Source: Raillietiella orientalis (lineage: Eukaryota). Taken from it: a DNA stretch of 64,000 bases. The DNA is taken from NCBI GenBank assembly GCA_036172245.1, contig JAYWIR010000096.1:124001-188000 (forward strand), written 5' to 3'. The notes under the pieces were generated by a model, which had not been told where the DNA came from, ran no database searches, and saw only the letters and a list, made by a program, of their open reading frames with translations. Each line of letters opens with the position of its first letter. The first letter of the stretch is position 1. The position numbers and the translations under genes were made by a program. This document shows positions 7,001 through 64,000 of this stretch, piece after piece.

Positions 7001-7614
7001 CCACTGGACCTGGGGAGCCGTGGACCCCAATTGCGTCAGGTGTGGGGAACGGGAGTCCCTCCCCCACCTGCTAGTGGATTGTGTTGCCCTTCGGCCCCTT
7101 TAATTTCGCTTTGCCGCGGCCATCGGAATCCCCTGGGGCAACCCCAGGGACGCACTGAAAGCCCTCTTCCTTGTTGACGCCCTTCGGCCAGCGGACTCGT
7201 TAGCAGCTTTGTGCTGCCTACGCGGGATCGTCACCGCTTGGAGCAAGGCTACGGGAGGACAACGCGACCAGTCTGCCATCCAGCCAGCCTCCCATTTCCT
7301 AGGAGAGCGTCCCGATGGCCGCACCTGGATCCAGGAATACAGAAGGAACTTGCCGGCATCCTGCAAAGGATGCAACGGCCCCACCAGCAACTGTGATCCC
7401 TTCCCTTACCCTCCCAACTTTTCTTTTCCTTTTTGTTTTGTTTTTTGTTTTTCCCCCTTCCCCCTGCTGCCGTTGTGGACCGTACCGGTCTGCGAACCGG
7501 TGACCCGGCAGGCTCTGTGTTTCTTCGTGCGTGGCTGGAGCAATGGTCCAGCCACCGCACGTCTTTGTAAAAGTTTATTTTACAATAAACGCCCCGGCGA
7601 AATCCGGGTGAAAA
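4063..7614 (+). mobile_element. Family A copy A1: 5'-truncated within APE, decayed ORF2 to 7396, complete 3' end
   Basis: APE C-half, RT (RQED, YADD), CVRC..H..C motif, TGATCCCTTCCC at the stop, AATAAA 7584-7589, hairpin 7593-7608, TGAAAA tail. Confidence 0.92.
7584..7614 (+). terminator. AATAAA, CCCGG-N6-CCGGG hairpin and TGAAAA 3' terminus (representative copy)
   Basis: Same architecture at ten 3' ends. Confidence 0.7.
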
Positions 7615-7748
7615 TCGAACGCCTTGCGTTCTCTAGGGTGGATGTGTTTTCTCGGTGCTCCTCGTGCCAGGAAGTCTCCCCCAGTGCAAGCGTCGCATGG
7701 TTCGGAGGTCGATCAGGCAGCGATGCCTGACGCGACCACCAGGGATGG

Positions 7749-7830
7749 CCAGGGGGCAGCGGCAACGCCGCCCCCAGAGGCGATGGAGAGCCAGGGGGCG
7801 GCGGCAACGTCGCCCCCAGAGGCGATGGAG
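7749..7830 (+). repeat. 42-bp tandem duplication in A2 ORF1 (QGAAATPPPEAMES x2)
   Basis: Two nearly identical adjacent 42-bp units. Confidence 0.85.
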
Positions 7831-9029
7831 GTGGGGGCATCCGCCCCCACAGAATCGGTCCCCGCTGCAGCGCGGGCGTGGAGCGCCGTTGTGTCGGCGC
7901 CATCGCCTGCAGCCGCGGCGGAATTGTCGGCCTATGTAGAGGAGGGGTACAATCCCTCATTGTTCTACAAGGTAGGCAATTTATATTCTTTAGAGAGCGC
8001 GCGCGCCTTCTCGAAGGGCATGCGCGCTCTCGATGTGAAAGAGGAGGAGCTCAGCGCTATGACCATCCGAGGCGGGGGTCAGTACGTTGAGGTCATTTGA
8101 AACATGCAGAGCTGGCCCAACGACTGCTAAAAACCCCCGTTGTGATGGGGACGCGCAGGCTCCTCCCCACTACGGCGGACCGCAGCATGGTGGTCCACCT
8201 GTTAGGCGTAACCGCGCGAATGCGCAAAGAACAGGTTGGCGCCGCTCTGGAAGAGTTCGAAACGGTCCACGCGCAGTGGACGAAAGTTAGTCCTTTCGAG
8301 GACTACACGGGGCTGCAACACGGCCTCACTGCTGCGCGCGTGACCGTTCAGGAGGGCTGCACTTTTCCCCACAAACTGGTGGTCGAAGGCGAAACCGTCG
8401 ACCTCTGGTATGTGGGGAACCCGAAATACTGTGGCATCTGCAATACGTCGGGCCACCTCAAAAAGGGGTGTCCCAACGTGCAGTGCCAAGTATGCGGAAC
8501 CTTGGGACACACGAGGAAGGTGTGACCTAAAGCAGCATTGCGGGTGGTTTCCAAGAGAAACCTTAAAAAACGTGCCCGGCTTCTGCAGAAAAGACTGGCG
8601 GCGAAGGCTGCCGCGAAGGCTGTGCCACCCGCGCCCAAGGTCCAGCCCGCACCCGAGACCCCGGCGAACAACGCTGAACTAGTCGACGGAACAAGCCAGG
8701 AGCCTGGGGGGCAGGTGGTTACGGCCAAAAAATCAAAGAAGGAGAGGAGGATGGAGAAAAAGCTCGCGTACCGCCAGAAAAAACAGCAGGCAAGCGAGCA
8801 AACTAAAGAATGCAGCGTTGTCGTTTATTACCCGGTTGCGCCGGGACGTTTATCTAAATATCAACTGAGAACTGTGTTCCCAGGCAAGGGGAACAGAAAA
8901 TGGGGAGTAGATTTCCCTGAACGCAGTCCGGGCACACTGAGAGTTCGGAACGGGATTGGGTGGGACAATAAATAAACAAACTGGGTGGGTAGGCGCAGAC
9001 AGGGGTATACCGTCTAACCGTTGCTATTC

Positions 9030-12000
9030 TCAGAACCGGCGGTGAATGCCGCGGATCTCCATCCTCACTTCTGCTCCAAGATGTGGCCACCCGGTAGCCA
9101 TTTGCAGGTTGCAGGCTGCGGTGTCGGGGACCGATGTTGGGACTGCTTGCCACTGCAATACGTGACGGGCTCTGACAATGGCGCGGACGCAGCGGATGAT
9201 TGCGACGACCGCTCCAAGAGAAAGTCCGCCACGCGTGTACAAGCGGCGCATCCAATCCAGTGCGGTGTGTCCAGGGTGCAGGAGCGCAGAAGACAGCCGC
9301 TGCCACAGCTCCTGGAGGGCACCGCACTCAAACAGCATATGCGGAAGCGATTCCACCGCTCCGCATTTGGCACAGTTCGGAGACGCAACTCCCCCAGGAA
9401 TCAGGTGCGCCCGCTGGTTGCAGTACAAACCCCAATGCACCAGCAGAAAAGCGTCCTGCTTCCACCGAAGGGGGAAGAGAGTCGCGTCCAAACACGCAGA
9501 AGGGACCACAAGTTCATCGGTGGGCACCCCGAGGAGCTCACTTCACCGGAGAAGCCCCTTTGCAAGAATGCGAGGTGTGACAGCGTCTGCCACTTCGCAA
9601 GTCCTCCAGCCGCCCAGCAGTCGGGTTTCGCCTGCGATTTCGCAAGTGATCTCCCACCTCGCCGGCAGGTCACTGTCATCTTGCACCATCAGTGCACACA
9701 GTGCTTCGGCGAGTGGCGTAGCGACTAGGCGTGTCCACTGGCCCTGGTCTTCCAGCACCTCCCCCACTGGACAGTATGGGGAAACTTTCACGCAGCAGAG
9801 TTCCAAACGGGACACATCCTGTTGCGCTGCCCAGGACGATAAGGCTTTTTGCCTCCAGGCGTTGAAGTTCGTCGGCCGGCAGGAGATCCACTCATGCATT
9901 CCCAGAAGCGTGGCGAGCTGCTTCAAAGGGAAGCCGAATCCTCTCTGGGCGCGCTCCGTGCGCAGATGCAGCGAACGTAGTCCGTCGCCACCCGTGCTGC
10001 GCCGCAGCAGCAGCCGCGCTGGAGCACACCAGGGAGTAGTCCAGAGCTGCGCACAAAGTGCCAGCATGCGGAACTGCACTAGCAGTCCGATCCGCTCCAG
10101 CGTCAGGATGCCCAATCCTGCATCCCGCCGAGAAGCCGCCAAGTCCTTCAGGCGTATCCTGGACCTCGCCGGTCCCCAGAGGGCGTTACGCAACAGGCGT
10201 TGCGCCCGGCGCTTAGCCGAGTAGGGAGGGGGACAAACAAAAAAGAGGGGACGGAGGAGGGGGGCAACGAAAATGTTCCACACGAAGGCCCGTTCCGACA
10301 GGAGAATCCTGCGGCCTTGGTACGGGCCCAGAGCAGTTTCGGCCTTGTGAAGGCAGTCCGACCACGCTTCTGCTGGAGAGAAGGCGCCCAAGGGAACGCC
10401 GAGGTACTTCAAGCACCTGCTCGTGGGGATCTTCAGGCGGATCCAGTCGCACTGCCCCTTCCACGTAGAGCCAACCGGTAGAACGGTTGATTTCGTCCTG
10501 TTCACGCTCAGGCCCGCTCCCCGACGAATGAGCTCGAAGAAGTCCTCGAGCCTGGACGCCGGGGTGGACATGGGCAGCAGCAGGAGAAGGTCGTGAGCAT
10601 AGGCGTCCACGGCCGGGATTCCCGGGCAGGAGCTCGGCAGGTTGGCCAGCGTCAGCCTGTACGCCCTCAGCACCAACTCAAAGAAGATGCTGAAGAGCAG
10701 GGGGCTTAAGCCGTCTCCCTGCCTGATACCCCGCCGTATGGGAACACCGTACACGTGACGCCCGCTGAAAGAGATGCAGCATAACGCGTAACGCCAGCAG
10801 GAGCGCAAGTAGGCGAAGAGGTGCGTCGGGAGGCCTAGGCGTTTTAGAAGCTCCAGGAGGAGGTCCTGGTTTACGCTGTTGAACGCTTTGCAGAGATCGA
10901 CGGCGACCGCTAAGGCTCCCGGCATTCCATCGTGCCTTGAACACGGATGCTCTCCTTTGGCAGCAGCGATTTCGGCTGCCTGGCTCTGCTGCGGCACGCG
11001 CTGCTGCAACTCGATATATGTTCGCGCGAAGAAGAGATTCGCGTCCATGGACCGCCCCGGAACAGCATACGTCTGCTCCGGACTTACCAAGGACTCTGCG
11101 ATTCTCCCCAGGCGCGCGACCCATAGCCTGGAGAACAACTGGACGGCCGAATTCACCAATGTGATGGGACGTTAGTTGCTGAGGTGGCGCAAATCACCGC
11201 CTTTCGTCAGGAGACGCACCTTTGCTGAGCGGAAAGAAGCGGGAACATCTCCCGTCTCACGCATCAGCGAGAAAAGGCTTAGCACCAGAGGGACGAGCTC
11301 CGCCGCGAAGCACTGGAAGAACTCCGCGGGCAGGGCATCCTCCTTAGGCGCCTAACGCCTCTTCAGGCTTGCTATGGCAGAAGACACTTCTTCCGCCATG
11401 AATGGTCAATCCAATTTGCCGCGTTCCTCCTCGTCGATAGCAGGGTTGCTCGTCTGAAGAAGCAGCTCGGAGAGACTGCGTTCCGTAAGCTCCTACGCGT
11501 ACAACGAGGAGTAGTAGCGCTTGACTACGCGGTGTACTTTGGCTGCAGCCGAGCATTCCTGGCCAGCGTCATCGAGCAGACAGGCCGCTCCAGACTGCCA
11601 AACCTGGCACTCGGCCCTGGACTTGTACTCCGCAAGGTACCGGACGTCCGGGCATCGAAAGAATTGGCGGGCCTGCAGAAACTCTCTGCTGTTGGCCACG
11701 CCTTCCCCGAAGCCACGGGGAAGCATGTGCAAGAAGAACCGGCAGCAGAACTCGCGGTCCGATCTTTTCAGATCGTCCCAGTCCTCGAGTTCACAGATGG
11801 CGAAGCCCCGGAGGTGTTGGCGGAGATGCTCCGCCGCCTCCGAATTGCTAGGCCAGTCGGCCGGCAACCTCCAGACATTCATCGGAGGCCCTTTGCCAGG
11901 CGGTTGGAGCTCGAACTCCAGTCTAGGATGATCCGAAATCGCGGACAGCAAACGCCCTCTTTGACCTACTCGTGAGAGCAGGTGTTCATCGAGGAACGCA

Positions 12001-12593
12001 TGGTCCGACGATCTCTCCATCCCGGGCTCACAAGCAAGCAAGTTTTGCACGCGCACGGACGCGCATACCTCGCTCACCAGTTGCTTCTCCCTCAAGCGGC
12101 ATCTCTCCTCTGTTAGCAGGTGGACGTTGAAGTCTCCTGCAAGGAGGTGCGCCACGTTAGGGCCGAAGTCAGGGAGCCAGCGGCTGCGCAGGCCACCCAG
12201 GAATGCAAGTCGATGGGCGTAATGCCGGGCGCCGCTCGGCGCGTAGATGTTCGTAACGACCAGGTCGATCGATTCGGACCACTTGAGGACAAGTTGGCCC
12301 ACACGACCTTCCTCGTCGAAACAAACGTTCCGCATCGCCTCCGCAACCCTGCCTCGGACGAGGAACGCGACTTCGCACGTGTGCGCGGAGCCTTGCCGCC
12401 AGTGTAGCGTCCCGCCCGCGCGCTCTTCCAGATCCGATGCCTGCCGTACGGAGATGCTATGTATCTCCTGCAGCAGCATTAAATCGAACGTGCGCAAAGC
12501 GTTGGCTGCCGTCCGTTTTTTGTCAGCATCACGTAGTTCGTTGACATTCCAACAGGCCACGCTGACGCAACGAGCGGATGCGAGTCCACGCAT
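9030..12593 (-). pseudogene. B1 ORF2 (APE-RT-CCHC), disrupted
   Basis: APE motifs, DLCKAFN, RQGDGLSP, YAHD in place of YADD, CAKCGAVESLPHMLFEC; several stops. Confidence 0.92.
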
Positions 12594-14559
12594 CACTGCT
12601 GCGGACACGACGGCGTGCTCCTCGCCCCGTCGGGCGAGAAGTCAGCTGGTAGGAGAGCGGATTGGGAAGCGGAATTGCTCCCGTTCGCCGTTACATCGCG
12701 CCCAGCTGAGTCCTGGGAGCCGAGGATCATCGCCTCGGTCTCCGTGCAGGAGCCGGAACCGCCTCCGGCAACAGGCTCGTGCTTTCGCACTTTAGCCAGG
12801 CGCGCTACCGGCTTACCCCGGGATGCGCGCTCCATTTGGTTGCACTCGGACTCCACCTCGGACTCCGAGTGCCTGGCGCGAGACTGGCGTTTTGCCAGTC
12901 TCTTTCTGTTTCGGCAGGTGGAGGCTTGCCCTGCCCGCGCGGGGGTCATCGCAGTCGCCAACGCAGCTTCCGGAGCTTTGGCTTCCGCAGCCGCCCTCTT
13001 GCGCGAAGCGACAGAGACAGAGCACACAGCGGTAGTGCGTACCTGGGTACGCACCTTTTTCGGGGAGCTTCTCTTTTGCCTCTCACCTACCTTAAGGATG
13101 GGGAATATTGAAGGGTCAACCTTCTTCTTCCCCTTTGTGGGCGTCCTGGAGACTCGAGTCCAGCGCGCGTCGGGGACACCCTCCTGGGAGGCCGACGCCT
13201 CCCTCAATTGTTTAGCCGGAGATACCGGCTCACGTTTCGCGCTCGCGGCGGGAGACGGCTCCGTCCCCGTTACGCACTGCACCTGCTTCTTAGCCGATGC
13301 GAGCGAAACGGCGGTGATTGCCGTCGTCCCGCGAGGCGCTATTGCAGCCTTCGCTGCTCGTGCCTTCGGCGTGGAAGACGTGATCTCCACCGCCGTAGGA
13401 GGAGACTGCCGTTCAGAGGTAGCTCCGAGGGTTCCCGCGCACGGTTTCCCGTATGCTCCGCTGGACGCGCAAGCGGACGCGGACGGTTCAGCAGCCTTGA
13501 TTGAGTGCGTGCCCGCACTCTTAGGCTGCTTCGAAGGGGACCATTTGCCCCCAGGGCGACGTGGCATCTTTCCCGTCTTGGCGGTTGTCTGCGATGGTGG
13601 CTTTCCTGAAGCAACCGCGCCTTTTTTCGCGGGACCGGCACTCGAAGATGCCCCGCCCTTGGAGCCCGATTTCTCCCGTGGCACAACGGGGGATCTTTTC
13701 GGCGCGTACGGGGTTGATTGTTGGCGGCTGATCGCCTGCCACTTTCTCTTCAGCTCGGCGCACTCTTTGATGGAGTGGCCGAGCTGTTTACAATAGCAGC
13801 AGTTGCGTAAAGGGCACGTCCACGGACGGTGGCCCTCGGCACCGCAAATGCCGCAAGCCAGTCGCTGACCGGCAAATTTAAGGTGGACGATCGCATCGCC
13901 CACCTGCAAGTGCGGAGGCATTTGCCTCCTATCCGCCATGGTGACACGCGCCATGGCAAGTTCGCTGTGGAGAGATGCAGTCCTTTTGATCGGATTATCT
14001 GCTCTCCTCAGCGCGTGCACCGTGGCGAATGCACTTAGTGCAGCGACGAGCACGCGATCAAGCGTGTCCACCTGGACGGCGGATAATCGAACCACGAACG
14101 ACTGGTCCATGGCCAACAGACGACCTCCTTCCCGCGGATATTTAGCAGGGTGCAAAGAAGGCGCTGGACTAGGGATGCCTCTTTGCAGTGCACATCCCAG
14201 TGTCCGAGCGCGTTAACCGGCATGACGGGCAGGAGGTCGTCCTGTCGGACCCCGACGCGCAAAAGCTCGTCCCACAAATTTTCTCGGACCCCGTCGGAGA
14301 TCGCAGCACTCACCGGATAGCATAGCGCAGGCTTGTAGCCATGGGCTGCATATGCCTGATGCCCCGCTTCGTCGGGCGGTGCTCCGCTGGCTGCCGCCGC
14401 CTTGACGACGGAAACGAAGCTTCTCGTCGGTGGCGAGACACAAGAATCAGAGGCAGACCGGACATCTGGAGTAAAGTCTCCACTGCAAGTGGCGGCTTCC
14501 ACATCCATGTTTTGCTGCAGGGGCTCCGTGAACATCCCAGTGGACGCACTCGGGCACAT
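12593..14559 (-). pseudogene. B1 ORF1 (two CCHC knuckles, long K/A/S/P-rich tail), frameshifted
   Basis: CGICGAEGHRPWTC, CCYCKQLGHSIKEC; ends PQQ-TGA overlapping the ORF2 ATG. Confidence 0.88.
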
Positions 14560-15188
14560 CACACACAAGAAGACGGAAAGGAATCACGCTCGAGGAGCAA
14601 CACAGAACACGTCCGTGCACTGTTGTCGTCGAGTGTATTCCCGACCGCTGCGAAAAAGAACTCGCCGCTACCGACGACCACCGCTCTGCTGAGTGTCAAC
14701 AGCGAGGGGAGCGAGCCGGCAGCAGTGTCCGTCATCGACACCACCATCGATGACGTAGCCTTCGCGCGAGCCGCGGAGGAGCTGGCAGCCTCGTTACAGC
14801 CAGAACCCTCCAAGGCTGGCAAGAAGGCCGTAAGGCGTCCGGCCTCCCCTCAGGAGTCCCCTACTGCCGATCCCGAAGTGGAGGCCGGAAGCGCAGCCTC
14901 TGTTTCCACGGCACCGCACAAGAAGGCTGGACGTAAGTCCACAATGCCAAGGAAGCTCGTCTCCCCCGTCGTAGGGGAAGAGATGGCTTCCGCAAGCGAG
15001 GGTGCCATGAGCGTGGGAAACTCTCGGGACCCGTCGACCCAGAGACTCCGACGCGGGGACACTGAGGGGATGGAGGGGGTGGAGGCCGAACTGGTGCCTC
15101 AGGTGCCTGAGAAGGCCGAAACCCCCATGAACATCCCGCCCGCCTCGCAAGAGGAGGGCTCCCCCACACCTTAATCTTCTTAGCAGTA

Positions 15189-18100
15189 ATGCCGGAAATC
15201 TCCCGCCGTCGTCTGCGCATCGCCGTTTGGAACGTGAACGGGATGACAGACGCCGGGAGGAGACGAGACATGGTCGCCCTTCTGGAGTCCTACCAACTTG
15301 CGCTGCTGCAGGAGATCCACCTGATCTCTGCAGAACAAGCGCGAGAGATCGAACGGATCTCCGAAATGCGGCTATGGTACAGGTGTGGGAGAGCGAAAAG
15401 TTGCGGTGTCGCCTACCTGCTCCGGCCAGCCGTCGAGACCGCGGCACGGAACATGCGGTTCGACGATCACCGTCGTTTCGGCCAGCTGACTCTCAGGTGG
15501 TCGGACTCGATCGATCTAATCGTGACGAACGTGTACGCACCGAGCGGCGCGGACCTGATGAACAAAAGGGCGATGAAAGAGTTTTTCCTTGCTTTCCGGC
15601 GAGACTGGCTGACCGAAGGAGGCGTGCGGAATGCCCATCTGGCTGAAGGCCGTTTCAACATTCGCCTGAAATCAGATGGGCAGAATCCCGAGCGTGACCT
15701 GGTCAACGAGGTGTGCAAGGCGGTGCACACCTGCAATTTGTTGGCCAGTGCGCCGGGGATGGGAGACTGCATCGACCACGTGTTTCTTGACGAGCATTTG
15801 TGCCCTCGCGTGGGCAGGCGCGGCAGGTTACCGTGCGAGCTGTCCGACCATCGCACGCTAGTCCTCCAGATTTATCCGCGCGACAAAAGCCCCCCCTCGT
15901 CAGCGTGGCGTCTCCCAAGGGACTGGCTGAAGCTCCCGGTCTCGGCACAACATCTCCGCACGTTCATACAGAGCTTAATGCTTCGGACACTTCAGGATTG
16001 GGAACGCTTCAAGCGGTCGTTCCACGAGTTCTGCGAGCAGTTCCCTCTGCACCGCCTACCTACGGGTTTTGGGACCGGGGTCCGTAACGAACGAGCCTAC
16101 CTGCAGGGTTGTTGTTACGCCAGGACCCCCGACATCCGCAGGCTGGCGGAATACAAAGCGGGAGTGAAAAGGCAAGCCTGGCAGTCCGGATCGGCCAGCT
16201 TACTGGACGATCAGGGCCAGGAGCACTCGGCACCTGCCAAAATCCGCGGCCTGCTGCGGTGTTACTACTCCTCCCTGTATGCCAGGGCACCTACGGAGAG
16301 GAACGTCTAACGAATTCTGCTTACGGGAGGCGCTCCAGCAATCGAGTAGGAGCAGAGAAAGACCCTCGACGAGCCTTTCAAGATGGACAAGATCCTCTCA
16401 GCCATCAGAAAGCTCAAGGAGCGAAACTCTCCAGGGGAGGACGGCTTGCCCGCGGAGTTTTATCAAACTTTCGCGGCTGAGCTTACCCCCCTGGTTTAGC
16501 AACTCACCTTGCTGATACGCGAAACAGGTGACGTTCCCGCCTCGTTTCGTTCTGCAAAGGTGCGGCTCCTCCCTAAGGGAGAAGATCTGAAGAGCATGAA
16601 CAACTGGCGTCCCATCACAATAGTGAATGCGGACTCCAAGTTGCTGGCTAAGGTTTGGGCAGAGCGTCTGGGACGGGTTGCCAACATGTTCATCAGCCCG
16701 GAACAGACATATGCTGTTCCTGGGCGAAGCATGGAGGCGAATCTGTTTCACGCTTCCACCTGGCTAGAGCTCCAACATGAAAGGAGCTTGGTGCGCAGCC
16801 GGAATTCCGGTGCGTGAGCCAGCGAGGAATTGGATGGTCGGGTGGGCAAGGCAGCCTTAGCGTTCGCAATCGACTTGCGGAAAGCATTCGATTGCATACA
16901 CCAGAATCTCCTTCTGGAGCTTCTGGAACGCTTGGGCTTCCCGGCCTCATTAGTGGCCTATCTGCGCTCCTGCTGGCGCAACGCGCTTATCAATGTTACT
17001 TTCAGCGGGTAGACCGTGCACGGCGTGCCGGTGCGGCGTGGGATCCGGCAGGGAGACAGCCTGAGCCCCTTGCTCTTCAGTACCTACTTTGAGTTGGTAC
17101 TGAGAGCGTACAGGGGAACTCTGGCGCACCTGCCGCACGACTGTGCCGGTACGCCGGCCGTTTCAGCCTTGCGGACGACCTTCTGCTGCTGCTCCCTATG
17201 TCCACCCTTGCAGCGGCGGTCGAGGAGTTCTTCGACCTGCTGCATCAAGGAACCGGAGTTACGGTGCATAGGGCGAAGTCGTCCGTTATGGCAGTTGGTG
17301 CGCCTTCGGCAGGGCAGCAGGACTGGGTCGGTTTGGGGATCCCCACGGTGAGGTACTTCAGATACCTTAGTGTGCCGTTGGGGGACTACTCCCCTGCGGA
17401 AGCGTGGTCCGGCTGCCTTCAAAAAGTAGAGACGGCGATCGGCCATCTCCGAGGCGCAGGTTTTCCTTGCCTGAACAAGCCGCGCTTTGGAACACGTTCG
17501 CGGCTCCTCTCCTCCGCCCCCTGCTTTTTGTTTGCCCCCCCACAGAGAGAATTAAAAAGCGGACAAAGGACCTCCTCCGTATCGCCCTTTGGGGCAACGG
17601 GAGGGCCCGAGTCCGCTTAAGGGACTTGTGCGCTCCTCGTCGGGATGGTGGTCTGGACCTCCTGACTCTGGAGCATCTGGAGCTTCAGCTCCAGTTCCGA
17701 TTGTCGGCATTCGTTCCAGGGCTGTTGTGCACCTGTTGGTGCGTACCTGCACGTTTCCTTCTCCAGCAAGTTACCGGCAAGACGGTACTGACGTCATTTC
17801 TTGCACTCCGTCGCCGCGTCAACCGATGCGGACTCCAGCTACGGAGAATGGCTGCGCTGTATCGCAAAAACCCATGATTTCTCACCTGTCGCCCTTTGAA
17901 CGGTAGTGCCTAATCGGAGGAAACCGTTTGAACCTGGGGACAGTTCGGCATGCAACGCTCCCAACAGGAACGAAGGTTCCTGTTTGGGGGTTACAGAAGT
18001 TGCACGCTCCGCGAGATCCTGGAGGATCCAAAGAAGAGAGAGTGGGCAGGAAAAACCTCCTCGCTGCTGCGCTGCTCTCCCTGATGGAAGATCTGGACAG

Positions 18101-18764
18101 CGATGTTGCGGCGAAGTGGGTGGTTACAGTAACAATCTCTGGAAAGGAGAAGAAGATAGGAGACTGGAAGACGGGCCAGTTAACAGATGCTGCGTCCCCG
18201 AGTACGCCTCCCAATGGACTTCTGCGCTGGGGCGCGCTGCTCGATGTTCCCATTGAACATCTGAAGTGGCCCCCGGTGCTCATGAACACTTCCGCCCTTC
18301 CCTCAAAATGGCAGGAGTCGGCTCTCCTGTTGCAGCACTGGGGACTCCCCTGCAACGCCCGCCGACACCACTTTACCTGGAGAGCGGTGGACCCCAATTG
18401 CGTCAAGTGTGGGGAACGGGATTCCCTCCCCCACCTGCTAGTGGATTGTGTTGCCCTTCGGCCCCTTTGGTTTCGCATTGCCGCGGCCATCCTAATCCCC
18501 TGCGGCAACCCCAGGGACGCAATGAAAGTCCTCTTCGTTGCCGACGCCCTTCGGCCAGCGGCCTCGTTAGCATCTTTGTGCTGCCTACGCGGGATCGTCA
18601 CCGCTTGGAGCAAGGCTACGGGAGGACAACGCGACCAGGGTGCCATCCAGCCAGCCTCCCAGTTCCTGAGGAGGGCGTTTCGATGGACCCAACTGGATCG
18701 AGGAATACAGAAGGAGCTTGCCGGCATCCTGCAAAGGATGCAACGGCCCTACCAGCAACTGTGA
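15189..18764 (+). pseudogene. A2 ORF2 (APE-RT-CCHC), multiple stops and frameshifts
   Basis: WNVNG, LQEIH, NVYAP, IDH, SDH, WRPITI, DLRKAFD, RQGDSLSP, CVKCGERDSLPHLLVDC. Confidence 0.92.
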
Positions 18765-18983
18765 TCCTCTCCCTTACCCTCCCAACTTTTCTTTTTTCTT
18801 TTGTTTTTTTTTTTTGTTTTTCTTCCTTCCCCCTGCTGCCGTGGTGGACCGTACCGGTCTGCGAACCGGTGACCCGGCAGGCTCTGTGTTTCTTCGTGCG
18901 TTGCAGGTGCAATGGTCCAGCCACCGCACGTCTTTGTAAAATTTTATTTTACAATAAACGCTTCGGCGAAATCCGGATGAAAA

Positions 18984-30020: not shown

Positions 30021-30147
30021 ATGAGGTCATCGCCCCCGGATCCCCACCGGTGGTGATATCAGGCATTGCTGCCTAATCCTCCACCCACACCACGCACAAG
30101 CGCCAACGGAAATGAAACTCAGGAGCAAGGAAAAGACACGTCCGCTC
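30021..30147 (-). mobile_element. Family H 5' end remnant (5' UTR plus MPDITT)
   Basis: Closely matches 61299-61425; begins GAGCGGACGTG. Confidence 0.85.
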
Positions 30148-43265: not shown

Positions 43266-43269
43266 CCCA

Positions 43270-48050: not shown

Positions 48051-49795
48051 AGTGCGGACGTATTTTTCTTCGCATTCGTCTCCTGGCTTTCATTCCCTCC
48101 ATCCTGGTGTCGTGCATTCCGACAACGATGGCGACTTAACCCGAAGATACTGAAGAGGGAGTAATAGCATCAGGATCTGCAATCGCGGAACCAACGGCCG
48201 CCTCCTCTCCTTCTGCCTCGCCAATGGCGAGATGTTTCGCTGACGTTGCTGCCGCGGCAGCCGTCAAAGGGGTACAACCCAACGAGAAGGAGGTGCAGGC
48301 CTACGTAGTCCAGGGCTACAATCTTGCACTCCGCTGCCAGTTCAGTGGATTTCTTTCTGTACGCGACGGTAATCAGTTCAACGATGAACTGACCCGTATT
48401 GGCGTGAGAAAGGAAGACCTTCTAGCCATTCTGCCCATCAAAAGCATGGGATATTTCAAAGTGCGCTGCAAAGACGCCGCTCTTGTGCAACGATTGCTAC
48501 GCACTCCTTTCTCCATCCGTGGTAAGAAGGTCTTCCCGTCAACCATGGATGAGTCATTCGTGGCGGAGATTTACGGCATCGAACCGGAAAGTTCCGACCG
48601 CGAATTGCATACTGTGTTAGCGAAATCCCCACGTTCCATGCTATGTAGAAGGTTGGAAGCACCCTTAAGGATTTTTCATCCATCGTAAGCGGTAGTGCAG
48701 CGGTTCGACTAACCATGGCGGACCGCCGGCTTCTACCCTTTAAGCTACAAGTGAACGGCACGGTCGTTCACCTGTGGCATTCAGGAAAGCCTCGAGTATG
48801 CGAGAGTTGCGGCGAAGAAAGGCATTATTCACAAAAGTGCCCTTCTGGTAAATGCCGCTATTGCAAGCAATCCAAGCACAACTTTAATAAATCCCGGACC
48901 TTGCTAGAAAAAAGGCAGCCGCAAAGCATAAACGCGCGAAATACGTCGCGAAAACGAGAAACGCGGCAGAGAAAAAACAGTGCGCATGGGCTAAGTCTCG
49001 TTCCGATGCGAATCGAAATGCCGGATAACAAAAGGGGTCCTCAACGTTGAAGCCCCTCGCGTCCCACTTAGCGGCAGGCAAGCTGGAGAAATTGCGCGGG
49101 AGCTCAAAGGACGACTCTACAGCTCGTGTCAACGATCGCGGAACCGCGGTTTCAGACCAGGGCCCAAAGAAGGCCAAGGGAAAAGAACTGCTGAACGGCG
49201 ATCGCAGTCAAGTGAAAAATAATCATTTCACGACATTGAGCCCTTCAAAGACGAAGAAGCCCAATGGCGAAAAAGGAAGGAGGCCTTCTTTCTGGATTCG
49301 AAAACCGGAAAAAATAATCGCGCGCCTCGCAGCAGCGCCCCGTCAGCGGAGAACCGTTCTCCGTGCGCACGATCGGAGAGCAAGCTCCCGACATAAAAGG
49401 ATGCGACCCCGACGGAGACGTCCACGGCGGTGGCGCACGCAGCGCCGCTGACGGCCGAGGAGTTAACCGCAGGGGTTCTCGCGGCGCAACAGGAGATCGC
49501 CTCCGAATACAGCGAAAGCGAGTAAACAGTGGTGCAGAGGAGAGGTAAGAAAAAAGCTCCGAAAAACGCTCCACAGCATCCGTCGAAAGCGCTCTTGAAG
49601 GCAAGGAACTCTCGAGTGATGAAAAAGACTCGCGCGGAAGTTCCTGGTGCAATATTGCGCTCCGATGCTGAAATCGCGCGAGCTGTAGAAACAGCCTCCT
49701 TACAAAGCGAAGCCACATTACCAAAGAGCGCAAAAACGATCGCTGTCCCACAAAAAAACAGCCGTTGCTCTTCGCGTGACGCGAAGAGCAACGGC
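48051..49795 (+). mobile_element. Family C copy C1: 5' end plus decayed ORF1
   Basis: AGTGCGGACG start; ORF1 homologous to that at 54665; CESCGEERHYSQKC. Confidence 0.85.
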
Positions 49796-52124: not shown

Positions 52125-52138
52125 CGCCGAATCCCGGC

Positions 52139-54587
52139 TGTGGAGAGAGGACGTGCTTTTCCTGCGCTCCGCATGCGTAGCAAAGCGAGTGTTTTTTTTT
52201 TCTTGAGTGATTTGTGCGTGCACATCCTCGGTGTCCGATGGCAGCGTTGCCAGAAGACACCGCGATGGAAGTAGGCGTGATGGAGGCTTGTTCGTACCCA
52301 CAGCCTACTGGAGCAGGGTCATCCGCCCCGGAATCGTCCCCGGCGACGCCGAGGTCATGGAGCGCCATGATGGCCGCGCCTAGCGTGGAAGCCATGGCCG
52401 AGATGGAAGCCTAGAAGAAAGCGGGGTATAAACCCTCGCTAGTCTACAAGGTAGGCAACCTTTTCCATAGGCGAACTGCACGCGCCTTTACGAAGGCGCT
52501 GCAGAACGCCAATATCTTCGAAAAAGATCTGGACGGCCTCTGCGTCCTCAGCGGCGGGCAGCGAATCGAGGTGGTATGCAAGGATATAACCTTGGCCCGA
52601 CACCTGATCACCGACCCGCTGATCGTTGATGCTCGGAAGATCTTGCCGGTGACGATGGAACGCTCGGTGGTGGTCCATCTCACTGGGATCTCCAGTCGAA
52701 TGACTAGGTCAGCGGTTCGAGAACAGCTACAAAAGCACGCAGAAGTGCACGCGTTGTGGCCGGAGTCCACGATTTTCCAAGGCTACAATAGCCTTTTCAA
52801 ATGTCAAGCTGCGGCGCGTATCACCGTAAAAGAGGGTGGTTCGCTTCCCCACAAGCTGGAAGTCTGCCAAGAAGCGGTGGACCTCTGGTACGTGGGGAAA
52901 CGCCAATTTTGTGGCTACTGCAATGCAGTAGGGCATCTACGAAAAAGGTGCCCGAACATTGTGTGCCACCTATGCGGCGGAAAGGGTCACGTTCGGCGCG
53001 TGTGCCCCAAGCGCATCACCCCGGTGCCCCCTGCCGCCAAAAAGGCGCAGGGCAAACGTGGAAAGCTGGTAGAAAGACCAGCTCGCGAAAATGGCCGTTT
53101 CCAACTGCCAGCCTCCCTTCCTCCCGTACAGACGTCGGGAGAAAGAGCTCCCGTGAACGCGGAAATTGAGGAGGGTTGGCAGCTGGTTCAGGCCAGAAAA
53201 AAAAAAAAAAAGAAATTAATGCCACAAGAAAACTCCGAGAAGAAAACTGCCGGCAACAAGAAAAAAGCCGCGCCGCTTTCAAGAAAAAAAAAACAACTTC
53301 GCGAATGCTCGGTGGCACTGGAAAGCTTAGCCGTTCATGCCGAGTCCGCCCGCGGCAATGTTCGCGGAACAGCTGATGCGGACGCGATGAATACTCGCGT
53401 GGACGAGCCCATTCTACGTTTAGAGGGTGAGACGCGAGACTCGCGCGCCGACAGCCAGGACGCCGCGCTCGATAAAGTCGCGTAGGAGCCCGCGGCAACG
53501 TTCGCCGTCAGCGATGACTCCGCGCTCGATAAGGTCGCGGAACAGCCCGCGGCACCGGTCCCCGCTGGGGAAGACGAGGCCTTCTAGAATGCGGCAAAGG
53601 AGCACGTAGCAACGCTCGCCGAGCGCGAAAACCAGCCGCGCAAGGGCGTACGCAGGTCGGCTCCGACGAAGAAGGCCCCCGCAGGTGAGTGCGAGCTGGG
53701 GGCCGGAAGCGGATCCTCCTCCTCGGAGGCACCCCACAGGAAGTCGGGACGCAAGTCCGAAAAACCCAGGAGGCGCCTGCCCTCCACCAGCGAGGAGGAG
53801 AAGCCGGAAGGAAGCGGCAGCGTGGGAATCCCGGTGGAGGAATACCCACGCCCGGAAGCCGTCGAGTCGGCCACCCCCATGGAGGAGGATGAGCATAGGG
53901 GTGAAGTCCTCCCTGCAGTCGCGAAACCTGAGCAGCCCGAACCCATGGAGGAAGGCGAACAGGTAGGCGCGGCTCCACCTGCGGGTGATCCGGCCGCCGC
54001 TCCGGCAGCGATGGAGGAGTAGGAACAGGTGCCTTCAGTACCTGTCCTCCCTCCCCCTTCACCTAGCGTCCCGCCCACGCAGGTGGCGGACGCCGCATCG
54101 CCGTTTTCCCAGGACTAACACCTGGGCTCGCCAGTCGCCGTCGGATTCGCGCCGCCTGTTGGAATGTTAACGGGCTGCGCGACGACGGCAACAGGCGACA
54201 TACGGCCGACACCCTGCGTGAGCTCGACCTAGCGCTGCTGCAGGAGATCCACGTGATCACCGCGGCAGACGCCCAGGAGATCGAGACGATCGCGGGGGGT
54301 CGGTTGTATTGGCGATGCGGCCACCGCAACACCTGCGGGGTCGCGTTCTTCGTGAAGCCGGCCATCGGCGCTGCCGTAAAGGGCGTGCGCTTTGATGACG
54401 ACGGTCCGATCGGTGAGCTGATTCTCAGCTGGTCCGATTCGATCGACCTAATCGTCACAAACGTGTATCGCCCCAGCGGCAAACAGTGGTACCGCGACCG
54501 CACCAGGCTGCTGGAAACCCTGAAACGCGACTGGATGGCGGATACCAATTTGTGAAAGGTTCACATGATAGCGGGAGATTTCAATCG
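52139..54587 (+). mobile_element. Family E copy E2: 5' end, ORF1 52238-54118, APE up to GDFN
   Basis: GAGGACGTG 5' motif; CGYCNAVGHLRKRC, CHLCGGKGHVRRVC; TAACA junction. Confidence 0.88.
53458..53630 (+). repeat. Three degenerate ~57-bp units (D.ALDKVA.EPAA) in E2 ORF1
   Basis: GAC(G/T)CCGCGCTCGATAA(A/G)GTCGCG occurs twice; the third unit is the DEAF..AA motif. Confidence 0.65.
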
Positions 54588-54604
54588 AGTGCGGACGTGT
54601 TTTA
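54588..54604 (+). promoter_or_regulatory. Conserved 5'-terminal (C)GGACGTG motif, DPE-like internal promoter candidate (representative copy)
   Basis: Present with variants at all nine recognisable A-H 5' ends. Confidence 0.55.
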
Positions 54605-58278: not shown

Positions 58279-60145
58279 TTTTCACCCGCATTTTGCCAGG
58301 GCGTGTATTGTGAAATATACATTTACAAAGACGTGCGGTGGCTGGACCATTGCTCCAGCCACGCACGAAGAAATACAGAGCCTGCCGGGTCACCGGTTTG
58401 CATACCGGTACGGTCCACCACGGCAGCAGGGGGAAGGGGGAAAAACAAAAAACAAAACAAAAAAAAAAAGAAAAGTTGGGAGGGTAAGGGAAGGGATCAC
58501 AGTTGCTGGTGGGGCCGTTGCATCCTTTGCAGGATGCCAGCAAGCTCCTTCTGTATTCCTGGATCCAGGTGAGGCCATCAGGACGCCCTCCTCAGGTACT
58601 GGGAGGCTGGCTGGATGGCAACCTGGTCGCGTTGTCCTCCCGTAGCCTTGCTCCAAGCGGTGACGATCCCGCGTAGGCAGCGCAAAGCTGCTCACGAGGC
58701 CGCTGGCCGAACTGCGTCGGCAACGAAGAAGGCTCTCAGTGGGTCCCTGGGGTTGCCGCAGCAGATTCCGATGGCCGCGGCAAAGCGAAACCAAAGGGGC
58801 CGAAGGGCAACACAATCCACTAGCAGGTGGGGGAGGGAATCCCGTTCCCCACACCTGACGCAATTGGGGTCCACCGCTCCCCAGGTACAGTGGTGTCGGC
58901 GGGCGTTGCAGGGGAGTTCCCAGTGCTGCAACAGGAGAGCCGACTCCTGCCATTTTAAGGGGAGGGCGGAAGTGTTCATGAGCACCGGGCGCCACTTCAG
59001 ATGTTCAATGGGAACATCAAGCAGCGCGCCCCAGCGCAGAAGTCCTTTGGGAGGCGTACTCGGGGTCCCAGCGTCTGTTACCTGGCCCGTCTTCCACTCT
59101 CCTATCTTCTTCTCCTTTCCGGAGATTGTTACTGTAACCACCCACTTCGCCGCAACATCGCTTTCCAGATCTTCCATCAGGTAGGGCAGCGCAGCAGCGA
59201 GGGGGGTTCTTCCTGCCCACGCTCTCTTTTTTGGATCCTCTAGGATCTCGCACAGCGTACAACTTCTGTAACCCCCAAACAGGAACCTTCGTTCCTGTTG
59301 GGAGCGTTGCATGCCGAACTGTCCCCACGTTCGAACGGTTTCCTGCAACCAGGCACTACCGTTAAACGGGCGACAGGTGAGCAATCCTGGGTTTTTCCGA
59401 TACAGCGCAGCCACCCTCCGTAGCTGGAGTCCGCATCGGTTGACGCGGAGATGGAGTGCAAGAAACGACGTCGGTCCCGTCTTGCCGGTGGCTTGCTGAA
59501 GCAGGAGACGTGCAGGGACGCACCAACAGGTGCACCACAACTCTGGAACGAGTGCCGACAAGCGGAACTGGAGCTGAAGCTCCAGCCGCTCCAGCGTCAG
59601 GAGACCCAGACCACAATCCCGACGATGAGCGCACAAGTCCTTTAAGCGGACTCCGGCCCTCCCTTTGCCCCAAAGGGCGTTACGGAGGAGGTCCTTCGTC
59701 CGCTTTTTGAACCTCTCTGTGGGGGAACAAACAAAAAGCAGGGAGCGGAGGAGAGGAGCCGCGAACGTGTTCCAAACCGCGGCCCGTTCAGGCAGGAAAA
59801 ACCTGCCGCCTCGGAACGGGCCGATCACCGTCTCTACATTTTGGAGGCAGCCGGACCACGCTTCCGCAACGGAGTAGTCCCCCAACGGCACACCAAGGTA
59901 CTTGAAGTACCTCACCGTGGGGATCCCCAAACGGACCTAGTCCTGCTGCCCTGCCCACGCCGCACCAACTGGCATCACGGACGACTTCGTCCTGTTCACC
60001 GTAAGTCCGGTTCCCCGATGTAGCAGGTCGAAGAACTCCTCGACCGCCGCAGCCGGGGTGGACATAGGGAGCAGCAGCAGAAAATCGTCCGCGTATGCTG
60101 AAACGGCCGGCGTACCGGCACAGTCGGGCGGCAGGTGCGCCAGAG
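58279..60145 (-). mobile_element. Family A copy A4: RT C-half to 3' end, antisense in the C2 KAFD codons
   Basis: Collinear with A1 ~5755-7614; YADD; TGATCCCTTCCC at 58499. Confidence 0.9.
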
Positions 60146-61298
60146 TCACCCTGTACGCTCTCAGCAACAACTCAAAGTAGGTGCTGAAGAGCAGGGATGT
60201 GAGGCTATCTCCCTGCCTTATGCCTTGCCGCACCGGCACGCCATACACCTTGTGAACGCTGAAACAGACGGTCATCATCGCATTCCGACAGCAAGAGCGC
60301 AAGTAAGAAAGCAGGGAGGGTGGGAAGCCCACGCAACGCAAGACCTCTGAAAGTAGTTCCTGGTCTACACAGTCGAACAGCATGTGGAGATGGACTGCGA
60401 GTGCGAGGGCACCCTTCCCCGCTCAAGGTTTTCTTTTCAGTCTGGATTGCGGGCCCAATGTGGGGTTGCTGACTTTCCCTATCCCTTTATTCTCTCTTCT
60501 CTGCAGGTGCACCCATGTGCTTTCGAAGGAGAGGTTGGCATCCATACTTCTCCCGGGAACAGCATAAGTCTGCTTCGGGCTAATTACGGATGCTGCCTCC
60601 TGCCCCAGACGCGAAGCTCATAGCCCTGCTATTAACTTGACGTCCGTCTTCACGATCGTGATAAGACGCTAGTTCTTTACATATCTGAGGTTTCCCCCTT
60701 TCGGAAGGAGCCTCACTCTGGCTGATCGAAATGAGGCGGGAACATCGTCTTCGTCTCGGATCAGCCTGAACAACTTAAGCAACAGGGGTTCCAGCGCTCC
60801 CGCGAAGCTCTAAAAGAACTCCGCGGGCAAGCCGTCTTCCCCTGGAGCCTTACGCCTTTTAAGCCTTTTCATACTGGTGAAAATTTTGCCGGTGGTAAAA
60901 GGCTTGTCGAGGCTTTCCATCTCCTCCTCCACTATTGCCGGGGCACCATCCGGAAGCAAGCGCCGAAAGGCGTCTCGATCCGGAAGCTCCCTGGTGTGAA
61001 GGGAGAAATAAAAACCTTGCATGAGATGCCGTACCGACGCCGGGGACGAACATTCCCGGCCCTGGTCGTCCAGCAAGCTGGGTAACCCGTATTGCCAGGC
61101 TTGGCGTTCGGCCCCGGCGCGGTACTCGGATAGGCGACGGACATTAGGGATTCTCTCGTACCTACGAGCCTGTAAATAAGCCCGATGCTTGCAAGGACCC
61201 TCGCCGAATCCGGGGGCAGGCGGTTTAAGGGGAACTGCTAGCAGAACTCCCGGTCCAAGGCCATAAAAAGGTCCCAATCCGTAAGACTCTGGAGCGTC
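60146..61298 (-). mobile_element. E/F-type ORF2 linker and RT N-half, fused in frame to A4
   Basis: TLQSLTDW...KAPGEDGLPAEFF...HKVYGVPVRQGIRQGDS. Confidence 0.8.
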
Positions 61299-62081
61299 GA
61301 GCGGACGTGTCTTTTCGCTGCTCCTGAGTTTCATTTCCATTGGTGCTTGTGCGTGGTGTGGGTGGAGGATTAGGCAGCAATGCCTGATACCACCACCGAC
61401 GAGGATCCGAAAGCGATGACCTCATTGCCACCGGAGGAGCTGGAGATGGGGCTTTCGCATCAGTGGAGGCTCCCGAGACCACGGATGCGCCCCCGGCCCT
61501 ACCCAGGGCTTGGAACACCGTGGCTGCGGCACCTACGCCAGCGGAAAGCCTACTCCTTTTGTCGATTACGACGAGGTGCTTGGCGGCCTGAGTGCAGCGC
61601 GAGAGACGGTTCGCGAAGGGTGTGAGTTTCCCCACAAACTCACCTTCAACGGTGAATCCGTTGACGTGTAGTACGTGGGGAAACCCAAGTTCTGCGGCTG
61701 CTGCAGCAGCTTTGGTCACCTCAAAATGAGTTGTCCGAGCGTGCAGTGCCATCAATGTGAACTAGCGGGGCACACCCGTCTGATGTGCCCCCAAAACACA
61801 GTCCGCGTTATGTCCGCAAAAAACGCGAGTAAGCGCACGGCTAAAAAAAGAAAGAAGTTGGCAGCTCGTGCTGCTGCTAAGGAATTCACCTACGCCACCA
61901 AGGCGAAGGCCAGCCCCGACAACCCGGCGAAAAACGCCGAAAAGGTCGAGGGCGAGGGTCAAGAGCCAGGTTGGCAGAAGGTCGACTCCAAGAAGAAGTC
62001 CTCTAAGAAGGGCGAAAACGTACAGAAACGGAGCGAAACCGCTCCGCGCCACGAAAAAACCAAAACCTGCTGCGTCGTCGT
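61299..62081 (+). mobile_element. Family H copy H2: 5' end plus internally deleted ORF1 (from 61380), cut by B3
   Basis: GAGCGGACGTG; CGCCSSFGHLKMSC, CHQCELAGHTRLMC; ends KTCCVVV. Confidence 0.85.
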
Positions 62082-64000
62082 TTATGACCCGGTTGCGCCG
62101 GGACGTTTATTAAAATATCAACTAAGAACTGTGTTCCCAGGCAAGAAGAACAGAAAATGGGGAGTAGATTTCCCAGAACGCAGTCCGGGCACACTGAGAG
62201 TTCGCAACGGGAGGGGGTGAAACAATAAATAAATAAATTGGTTGGGAGGGAGGGGATAGGTGTATACTGTTTAACCGTTCCTATTCTCAGAACCGGCGGT
62301 GAATGCCGCCGATATCCGTCCTCACTTCTGCTCCAAGATGTGGCCACCCAGCAGCCATTTGCAGGTTGCAGGCTGCGGTGTCGGGGACCGATGTTAGGAC
62401 TGCTCGCCTCTGCAATACGTGACGGGCCCTGACAATGGCGCGGACGCAGCGGATGATTGCGACGACCGCTCCAAGAGAAAGTCCGCCACGCGTGTACAAG
62501 CGGCGCATCCAATCCAGTGCGGTGTGTCCAGGGTGCAGGAGCGCTGAAGACAGCCGTTGCCACAGCTCCTGGAGGGCACCGCACTCAAACAGCATATGCG
62601 GAAGCGATTCCACCGCTCCGCATTTGGCACAGTTCGGAGACGCAACTCCCCCGGGAATCAGGTGCGCCCGCTGGTTGCAGTACAAACCCCAATGCACCAG
62701 CAGAAAAGCGTCCTGCTTCCACCAAAGGGGGAAAAGAGTCGCGTCCAAACACGCAGAAGGGACCACAAGTTCATCGGTCGGCACCCCGAGAAGCTCACTT
62801 TACCGGAGAAGCCCCTTTGCAAGAATGCGAGGTGTGACAGCGTCTGCCACTTCGCAAGTCCGTTAGCCGCCCAGCAGTCGGGTTTCGCCTGCGATTTCGC
62901 AAGTGATCTCCCACCTCGCCGGCAGGTCACTGTCATCTCGCACCATCAGTGCACACAGTGCTTCGGCGAGTGGCGTAGCGGCTAGGCGTGTCCACTGGTC
63001 CTGGTCTTCCAGCACCTCCCTTACTGGACAGTATGGGGAAAGTTCCACGCAACGGAGTTCCAAACGGGACACATCCTGTTGCGCTGCCCAGGACGATAAG
63101 GCTTCCTGCCTTTAGGCGTTGAAGTTCGCAACCGGCAGGAGATCCACTCATGCTTTCCCAGAAGCGTGGCGAGCTGCTTCAAAGGGAAGCCGAATCCTCT
63201 CTGGGCGCCCTCCGCGCGCAGATTCAACGAACGTAGTCCGTCGCCACCCGTGCTGCGCCGCAGCAGCAGCCGCGCTAAAGCACACCAGGGAGTAGTCCAG
63301 AGCTGCGCACAGAGTGCCAGCATGCGGAACTGCACTAGCAGTCCGATCCGCTCCAGCGTGAGGATGCCCAATCCTGCATCCCGCCGAGGAGCCGCCAAGT
63401 CCTTCAGGCGTATCCTTGACTTCGCCGGTCCCCAGAGGGCGTTACGCAACAGGCGTTGCGCCCGGCTCTTAGCCGAGTGGGGAGGCGGACAAACAAGAAA
63501 GAGGGGACGGAGGAGGCAGGCAACGAAAATGTTCCACACAAAGACCCGTTCCGACAAGAGAAACCTGCCGCCTTGGAACGAGCCCAGAGCAGTCTCGGCC
63601 TTATGAAGGCAGTCCGAGCACGATTCTGCTGGACAGAAGGCGCCCAACGGAACGCCGAGGTACTTCAAGCACCAGCCCGTGAGGATCCCCAGGCGGATCC
63701 AGTCGGACTGCCCCTCCCACGTAAAGCCAACCGGTGGAACGGTTGATTTCGTCCTGTTCACGCTCAGGTCCGCTCCCCGACGAATGAGCTCGAAGAAGTC
63801 CTCGAGCCTGGACGCCGGAGTGGACATGGGCAGCAGCAGGAGAAGGTCGTCAGCATAGGCGGCCACGGCCGATGTTCCCGGGCAGGAGCTCGGCAGGTTG
63901 GCCAGCGTCAGCCTGTACGCCCTCAGCACCAGCTGAAAGAAGATGCTAAAGAGCAGGGGGCTTAAGCCGTCTCCCTGCCTGATACCCCGCCGCATGGGAA
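62082..64000 (-). mobile_element. Family B copy B3: RT C-half to 3' end (ORF2 stop 62287), continuing beyond the window
   Basis: Collinear with B1 8825-10745; RQGD, YADD; AATAAA and hairpin 62088-62111. Confidence 0.92.

Follow-up and report, generated by a model that had tools for sequence, protein, structure and literature searches.

Recurrent junctions between LINE retrotransposons at conserved coding motifs in a 64-kb window of Raillietiella orientalis

Why should retrotransposons end, time after time, on the same few codons of other retrotransposons? The question is raised by a stretch of 64,000 nucleotides from Raillietiella orientalis (contig JAYWIR010000096.1, positions 124,001 to 188,000), which is the whole of the DNA analysed here; we call it the window and give all positions in its own numbering. 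An earlier note on this stretch had proposed that several families of long interspersed nuclear elements (LINEs) insert site specifically into coding motifs of their relatives. Following up that proposal, we found element ends joined in a fixed register to the KAFD codons of the reverse transcriptase (RT) three times, to the C(S/C)VVV codons of the first open reading frame (ORF1) twice and to the GDFN codons of the APE endonuclease domain two or three times, the hosts being diverged in each case. We consider it rather probable that the window is a LINE-only island which arose by nested, family-specific and site-specific retrotransposition.

All of the elements are members of one group of APE-type non-LTR (long terminal repeat) retrotransposons. 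About 87% of the bases in the window are LINE derived, as judged by self-alignment and by tblastn with two in-window reference elements, and the bases without a LINE match are mostly ORF1 tails. The elements lack LTRs, have a defined 3′ end, place ORF1 (with CCHC knuckles) before an ORF2 that encodes APE, RT and zf-RVT domains, and occur as both 5′-truncated and full-length copies. Of 233 stop-to-stop ORFs of at least 110 amino acids that were listed, 138 were scanned against Pfam; RVT_1 was found in 9, Exo_endo_phos in 6, and zf-RVT and zf-CCHC in 2 each, with no other Pfam domain among the 138, and 9 extra ORFs yielded only a weak knuckle. The APE domain resembles human L1 endonuclease structures (phmmer, E = 0.0015 to 0.0026), and the RT domain downstream of it matches the L1 ORF2p and R2 structures. 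The closest named proteins are unannotated Microbotryum ORFs (ca. 30% identity), and one unnamed metagenome protein reaches 57%. GC content ranges from 45 to 62% across the window and is 57% overall. The coordinate system used throughout is that of B1, a nearly intact element of 5,760 bp, and all fragments were placed on it by tblastn. Sliding-window identity and trees distinguish the lineages A (A1 and A2), A′, B (B1 to B3), C (C3 and C4), D-like (D, C2 and E23), H (H1L, F21 and the 5′ part of H3), E1, E2 and an old lineage, L.

Element ends at conserved codons

The elements have their termini in common. A 3′ stem-loop, ATAAACG-n-CCCGG-loop-CCGGGT, is present at all nine recognisable 3′ ends, seven of which were found by a motif scan (10 matches, 3 of them not termini) and two of which were read at junctions. 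The stem-loop is followed by a short, family-specific tail of 4 to 11 nucleotides, and poly(A) is absent from all nine of the aligned 3′ ends. Every one of the nine adjoins antisense LINE coding sequence, although in two of them there are merely 11 to 13 nucleotides of such sequence. Full-length copies start with G(A/T)GCGGACGTG and have a GGCAGCAATGCC hairpin in the 5′ untranslated region (UTR).

At the KAFD site, in RT motif A, the junction consists of ...GGGTGAAAA followed directly by TCGAACGCCTTG, and the register is identical at 7614/7615 (+), 18983/18984 (+) and 58279/58278 (−), just as the earlier note had described for A-type ends at 7614, 18983 and 58279. The 12-mer TCGAACGCCTTG is the reverse complement of the codons for K-A-F-D, ORF2 residues 585 to 588 in B1 coordinates. 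The three inserts are A1 (4064..7614, +), an A-family element that is 5′ truncated at ORF2 residue 99 and finishes with the 3′ stem-loop and a GTGAAAA tail; A2R (14586..18983, +), an A-type segment that runs from 30 nucleotides upstream of a second C-T-V-V-V motif to a 3′ end joined to the antisense KAFD codons of C2; and H3 (58279..61298, −), an H-like/A1-like mosaic with its 3′ end on the antisense KAFD codons of C3. At 18984 and 58278 the host sequence is the 5′ part of ORF2, in antisense and broken off exactly at residue 588: C2 (18984..22782, −) is a D-like element comprising ORF1 and ORF2 residues 15 to 588, and C3 (54589..58278, +) comprises a C-family 5′ UTR, ORF1 and ORF2 residues 1 to 588, being itself inserted in sense at the GDFN codons of E23. 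At 7615 only 12 nucleotides are host-like (the antisense KAFD 12-mer, 7615..7626, no strand assigned), after which comes the 5′ UTR of another A-type element, A2L (7627..8825, +), which continues through ORF1 as far as the codons C-S-V-V-V. The window has three exact copies of the 12-mer CAAGGCGTTCGA, each with an A-type 3′ end, and the four motif-A sites with one or two mismatches (in F21, D, B1 and E1) are all empty. Motif A is uninterrupted in D, B1, E1, F21, H3, A1, A2 and A′.

The inserts at the KAFD site are 91 to 95% identical, versus 57 to 59% for the long hosts C2 and C3. A seven-row tree of the 5′ half of ORF2 places C2 with D and C3 with B1/E1, each with 100/100 support, and a nine-row tree of the 3′ half places A1, A2 and H3 in a tight clade with end branches of 0.025 to 0.057. 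The comparison of host and insert trees that the earlier note called for thus gives, for KAFD within the window, hosts in separate clades and inserts in a single one. Because C2 and C3 fall in different supported clades with uninterrupted sisters, a single ancestral KAFD insertion is excluded. The claim that these hosts belong to different families, so that no single duplication can account for them, therefore holds for C2 and C3; the further host family that had been named, "E0," does not exist, the host at 7614 being the 12-nucleotide remnant.

These observations bear directly on the proposal that each recurrent junction represents one old insertion, spread by segmental duplication, in which the inserts were later homogenised by gene conversion from younger copies. 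Such a history would suit the self-alignments that span several junctions, the mosaic elements (which show exchange between families) and the linker junctions at 30147 and 61299, which are alike on both sides and are possibly copies. However, an insertion that preceded the split between the deep clades of C2 and C3 would persist in the sister elements D, B1 and E1, gene conversion must in every case have stopped exactly at the junction, and the hosts of the B and C inserts are likewise only 57 to 60% alike. We regard this history as quite improbable.

A second alternative concerns the immediate flank. C2 and C3 are identical at 20 of 20 positions beside the KAFD junction, and this identity might stem from a flank that was co-mobilised or converted, not from recognition by an endonuclease. 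R1 and telomere-specific LINEs are helped by read-through or target-like 3′ tails, and integration here might similarly be guided by homology and need no sequence-specific endonuclease, a read-through flank annealing to the same motif in other LINE copies and thereby fixing the register. The recurrence of the sites would in that case tell where the master copy lies and would say nothing of protein specificity. The perfect match between hosts that are otherwise 57 to 59% alike is what this alternative predicts, and both A1 and F21 are followed by 11 to 13 target-like nucleotides and then by unrelated DNA, as a transduced tail would be. Yet the hosts of the B elements differ at 2 of the first 15 nucleotides and then diverge, so that no co-mobilised flank is present there, and the 12-mer after A1 is equally explicable as the target duplication of its neighbour: positions 7615 to 7626 are identical to 18984 to 18995, which places the same 12 nucleotides on both sides of the A2L...A2R element (7627...18983). 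We find homology-guided integration fairly unlikely, and it would still amount to site-specific targeting of the same motifs. As we read the repeated 12 nucleotides, they resemble a target-site duplication, and A1 would have reinserted at the site which that duplication regenerated.

The second site lies in ORF1. The junction ...CCGGGT(A/C)ATA followed by AACGAC(A/G)ACGC(T/A)GCA is found at 8826/8825 and again at 62083/62082, in the same register, in agreement with the claim that B-family ends adjoin C(S/C)VVV codons at 8825 and 62082. The first insert is B1 itself (8826..14585, −), a full-length element of 5,760 bp with its 3′ end on the antisense CSVVV codons of A2L, an intact ORF1 of 539 amino acids and an ORF2 of ca. 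1,203 codons with few lesions. The second is B3 (62083..64000, −), which exits the right edge of the window and has its 3′ end on the antisense CCVVV codons of Z (61299..62082, +), an A-like element with a complete 5′ end (GAGCGGACGTG...) that lies antisense at the linker of H3 and reaches C-C-V-V-V. B1 and B3 are 94% identical (1807/1918), versus 57% (369/643) for their hosts (8100 to 8825 and 61430 to 62082), which differ at two of the first 15 nucleotides beside the junction and diverge completely beyond. In A′, host ORF1 is seen to be continuous across the CxVVV motif.

At the third site, in APE, the inserts are in sense orientation. The junction ...TTCAATC(T/G)A followed by GTGCGGACGT occurs at 48051/48052, where E19 (47530..48051, +; APE residues 3 to 173) stops at GDFN and C4 (48052..49300, +; a C-family 5′ end, GTGCGGACGT..., and ORF1) begins, and at 54588/54589, where E23 (52139..54588, +; a D/C2-like 5′ UTR, ORF1 and APE up to GDFN) gives way to C3. 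The inserts are 75% identical (654/871) and the hosts 60% (305/509); E23 is D/C2-like at 75 to 78%, and no other sequence in the window exceeds 63% identity to E19. In relatives without an insert, this position has the sequence TTCAA(T/C)CTCCGCCTG. The register claimed for 48051 and 54588 is thus borne out. The suggested third case at 29083 is less exact: an APE remnant, G10a (28885..29081, +; approximately residues 106 to 172), stops at GDFN and breaks within 1 to 2 nucleotides of the junction (29081 to 29083), and it is joined to an ORF2 fragment from residue 797, G10b (29082..30016, +; residues 797 to 1110, nearest to B1 at 63% nucleotide identity), which is possibly a 5′-truncated insert at the GDFN site. 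A 3,755-nucleotide contig from a related sequencing run, X1 (0.13 of sampled words; assembled at 80% likeness, which gave short contigs, mostly less than 90% alike), matches C3 (54557 to 58278) with 162 differing letters. It starts 32 nucleotides on the host side of the C 5′ junction and so spans the boundary between GDFN and C3, and it stops 7 letters after KAFD, leaving the KAFD junction unbridged. This contig may represent the same locus, and we do not count it as independent support.

The linker site, nesting and rearrangement

The fourth site is the linker between APE and RT. A′ (32920..38498, +) is a full-length element at the E-L-E-D-W region of the linker, flanked on the left by S15 (32675..32919, −), a host remnant of ORF2 residues 287 to 369, and on the right by B2 (38499..41147, −), which consists of a B-family 5′ UTR, ORF1 and ORF2 residues 1 to 285. 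Since both host flanks are present and are contiguous in B1 coordinates (11779/11789, with ca. 9 nucleotides of target lost), A′ is a true insertion. Its 5′ junction contains a 16- to 29-nucleotide inverted copy of the adjacent host sequence (32910 to 32938).

The earlier note had also placed H-family ends at the linker, at 30147 and 61299. The register at 30147/30148 and 61299/61298 is indeed identical, and the nature of the insert had to be revised. Positions 30017 to 30147 and 61299 to 61429 share the reverse complement of the first 131 nucleotides of an A-like 5′ UTR, and at the right-hand locus Z is collinear with A2L and A′ until C-C-V-V-V, where B3 sits. As the shared 131 nucleotides are the start of a 5′ UTR and Z continues into ORF1, the linker junction marks where an antisense A-like insert has its 5′ end; an inserted H end was rejected, the 131-nucleotide piece having no 3′ stem-loop. 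The left-hand copy of this piece (30017..30147, −) adjoins the linker of H1L (30148..30838, +; H-family ORF2 residues 275 to 507). Identity between the two loci is 91% on the Z side and 87% on the H side. With both sides alike, the pair of junctions may descend from a single event, and the independence of the copies is thus not supported. The linker junction of Z lies 12 nucleotides away from where A′ has its 3′ junction.

The H1 unit has its start exactly 131 nucleotides into the antisense A-like 5′ UTR, the same 5′ UTR which at H3 continues into ORF1. The antisense promoter of human L1 yields chimeric transcripts, and, purely by analogy, this start could be explained by retrotransposition of a chimeric transcript driven by an antisense promoter, or else by a rearrangement.

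Put together, the junctions form the partly circular network that had been proposed, with B inserted into A-like ORF1, A′ and Z into B-like and H-like linkers, A-type elements into D-like and B-like RT, and C into D-like and other APE domains. At the right end of the window they build a stack of five levels, in which E23 received C3 (at GDFN), C3 received H3 (at KAFD), H3 received Z (at the linker) and Z received B3 (at CCVVV); for each of these four motifs there is a further junction elsewhere in the window, in another host.

Further junctions have a similar form. The 3′ end of H1R (30839..32674, +; ORF2 residues 692 to 1203 and the 3′ stem-loop) adjoins antisense, E1-like S15 at 32674/32675. 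The degenerate 3′ stem-loop of L (41148..46435, +), which is older and AT-richer LINE material (46% GC), adjoins antisense G17 (46436..46713, −; B1-like ORF2 residues 374 to 461) at 46435. In B coordinates the right edge of G17 (46713) and the left edge of S15 fall on neighbouring nucleotides, and that edge of G17 lies beside a 5′-truncated insert, G18 (46714..47300, +; ORF2 from residue 771). ORF2 residue ∼371 of B-like hosts may represent a fifth site of this recurrent kind. The 3′ end of F21 (49803..52125, +; H/C2-like ORF2 residues 511 to 1203 and the 3′ stem-loop) is followed by 11 to 13 nucleotides like the antisense GFGE linker codons and then by the 5′ end of E23; one possibility is that this flank is a GFGE target, the resemblance of 11 to 13 nucleotides including an indel. 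Immediately before F21, at 49754 to 49802, there is a near-perfect palindrome of 49 nucleotides (AAAAACAGCCGTTGCTCTTCGCG..CGCGAAGAGCAACGGCTGTTTTT).

The pieces do not all lie in collinear order. F21 begins at the nucleotide following the end of H1L in H coordinates, yet these two edges (30838 and 49803) are 19 kb apart in the window, and the G17 and S15 edges (46713 and 32675), adjacent in element coordinates, are likewise non-collinear. An attempt to un-nest the window fully into a clean insertion hierarchy failed for 28 to 50 kb on account of such non-collinear halves. Might the junctions, then, be no insertion sites at all, and instead be places where diverged LINEs recombined ectopically, switched template or were repaired at short conserved motifs that they share? 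The flank mismatches and the non-collinear halves (H1L/F21 and G17/S15) have this character, as does the switch in H3, which falls in the conserved QGDSLSP region. However, the recurrent junctions unite a complete 3′ or 5′ terminus with an internal antisense position, which homology-driven exchange cannot do, and A′ is precise on both flanks, so that we hold this explanation to be highly improbable. Within a history of site-specific insertion, the mismatched flanks would be explained by ectopic recombination between same-lineage inserts occupying the same site in different hosts.

Mosaics occur in some lineages. H3 is H-like from the linker to ca. 200 nucleotides past its own motif A and is then 93 to 95% A1-like to the 3′ end, with the switch point inside QGDSLSPLLF, and A′ is 82 to 93% A-like solely in the middle of RT. 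Exchange between lineages, by recombination or template switching, appears to be common. At the left end of the window, E1 (1..2056, −; placed by tblastn, with Pfam RVT_1 and Exo_endo_phos) is a LINE of the B superfamily covering ORF2 residues 2 to 671 that exits the left edge and lies head to head with E2 (1959..4063, +), an ORF1 of a distinct family with 693 codons, one stop and a C-terminal CCHC knuckle. This ORF1 is unlike the others, with ca. 24% amino acid identity in the knuckle region only. A1 follows directly in the same orientation, and the union of E2 with this 5′-truncated element may be a template-switch chimera. D (23900..28884, −), a near full-length sister of C2, has no insert in its motif A, and its 5′ end adjoins the antisense APE codons (FDEEGR) of G10a. 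Finally, the L block (41148 to 46435) has a moderate GC-to-AT excess and no CpG depletion. Repeat-induced point mutation was considered for this AT-rich part (41 to 46 kb) and is unsupported (CpG observed/expected, 0.91; TpA, 0.64); the block may instead have the background composition of the genome.

A proposed mechanism and its weight

From the junctions, their register, the independence of the hosts and the shared termini, we infer the following sequence of events. The ORF2 endonuclease of each lineage would nick one strand of a 12- to 20-nucleotide sequence within a conserved coding motif of other lineages, and the nick would prime reverse transcription on the 3′ end of the element (target-primed reverse transcription). 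Cleavage of the second strand at a fixed distance would then leave a short target duplication, of 12 nucleotides for A and perhaps ca. 45 for B, and such a duplication could regenerate the site and permit head-to-tail reinsertion, as in the arrangement of A1, the 12-mer and A2L. The targets seen in the window are the antisense RT motif A (HKAFD) for the A-type 3′ module, the antisense C(S/C)VVV codons of ORF1 for B, the antisense APE-RT linker for A′ and Z, and the sense GDFN codons of APE for C. H3 has no APE domain and yet sits on an A target with an A-type 3′ half, which suggests that nonautonomous chimeras of this kind are mobilised in trans through recognition of their 3′ ends.

By our own estimate, the chance of two independent insertions sharing both position and strand in an element of ca. 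5.7 kb is about 1 in 11,000, and such a coincidence recurs at several sites in the window. Against this stand a number of observations, in addition to the flank identity at KAFD discussed above. The sample is one window of 64 kb with two or three events per site, and no fully intact ORF2 was seen in it. C is the sole lineage joined in sense, and the window contains none of its 3′ junctions. The 5′ flanks of A1, H3, H1R, B1 and B2 do not continue the host found at the 3′ flank; for B2 this flank consists of the 5′ UTR of L and is situated ca. 850 bp upstream of the expected CxVVV site. The two sides of A′ look like different families, 86% E1-like on the left and 87% B1-like on the right. The right flank of B1 begins 30 nucleotides upstream of the second C-T-V-V-V motif, and a simple 45-nucleotide target duplication for B1 was rejected: the two copies that contain C(S/T)VVV are identical at just 22 of 45 positions (hand count), and B1's flanks therefore probably come from two different hosts. 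Lastly, the mosaic families (H3 and A′) imply active recombination or gene conversion, which could homogenise inserts. A search of metagenomes with a degenerate 19-nucleotide pattern for the A-type 3′ end gave 106 loci, approximately the number expected by chance, and none of these matched the window (blastn) or the B1 proteins (tblastn).

The earlier note went further and supposed that each family uses a motif of its relatives as a safe harbour and inactivates them in doing so; both this and an endonuclease specificity for coding motifs are predictions from the arrangement of the elements. An extended form of the idea is that at least five LINE lineages constitute a self-sustaining community, in which each endonuclease would be specific for a codon-constrained motif of competitors, be it RT motif A, GDFN, the APE-RT linker or an ORF1 motif, while its own version of that motif differs, each insertion would at once find a harmless site and disable a rival, and chimeras such as H3 would hijack the 3′ module of another lineage. 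This is a tentative proposal that we think may well prove wrong. If true, it would represent reciprocal, partly circular targeting of transposon by transposon.

Related systems and meaning

Zepp and ZeppL, L1-type elements of green algae, provide a close parallel, forming GC-rich LINE clusters by nested or tandem insertion into existing copies (PMC8226300, PMC3446292), and the clusters of Chlamydomonas consist of one ZeppL family nesting in itself (PMC9940879), as far as the parts of these papers used here describe them. The window shares with these clusters the nested growth by insertion into existing LINE copies, with ca. 87% LINE content and a five-level stack. It differs in that at least five diverged lineages hit each other's codon motifs, versus the single self-nesting family of those accounts. 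The 3′ end of Zepp is poly(A), whereas those of the window have the stem-loop and a tail of 4 to 11 nucleotides without poly(A), Zepp being compared here by its description rather than its sequence. Cnl1 of Cryptococcus, a non-LTR retrotransposon that piles up in subtelomeric arrays of its own copies (bioRxiv 10.1101/2021.08.11.455996), is similar in forming arrays of itself. In the portion of that report used here, however, it is a single family that prefers GC-rich sites and also enters genes, and codon-register targets are not described.

Target-specific LINEs are known for ribosomal DNA (rDNA), telomeres, small RNA genes, microsatellites and a few transposons. R1 inserts in 28S rDNA, TRAS and SART insert in telomeric repeats, and Tx1L inserts in the Tx1D DNA transposon. 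Kojima and Jurka count transposons as one class of target for such LINEs, and mention the Tx1 and R1 clades by name (PMC4640811). The elements of the window are like these in being APE-type LINEs found at one defined sequence of a multicopy target, other transposons included, although we liken them by description and not by clade placement. They are unlike them in that the targets are protein-coding motifs of related LINEs, and in that several coexisting lineages with different targets hit each other. Our full-text literature search found no account of LINE lineages targeting each other's coding motifs; Repbase reports lie outside such a search, so that absence in print is not thereby established.

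Should the site specificity fail genome-wide, the window would be a heavily rearranged LINE graveyard. If instead it holds, related lineages with different coding-motif targets in one another would add direct and reciprocal interactions between transposons to the known repertoire of target-specific LINEs. Such a system would also show how LINE-only islands, possibly centromere-like, grow without damage to genes, and its APE endonucleases, closely related yet each specific for a different sequence of 12 to 20 nucleotides, would form a set from which one might learn how specificity is encoded.

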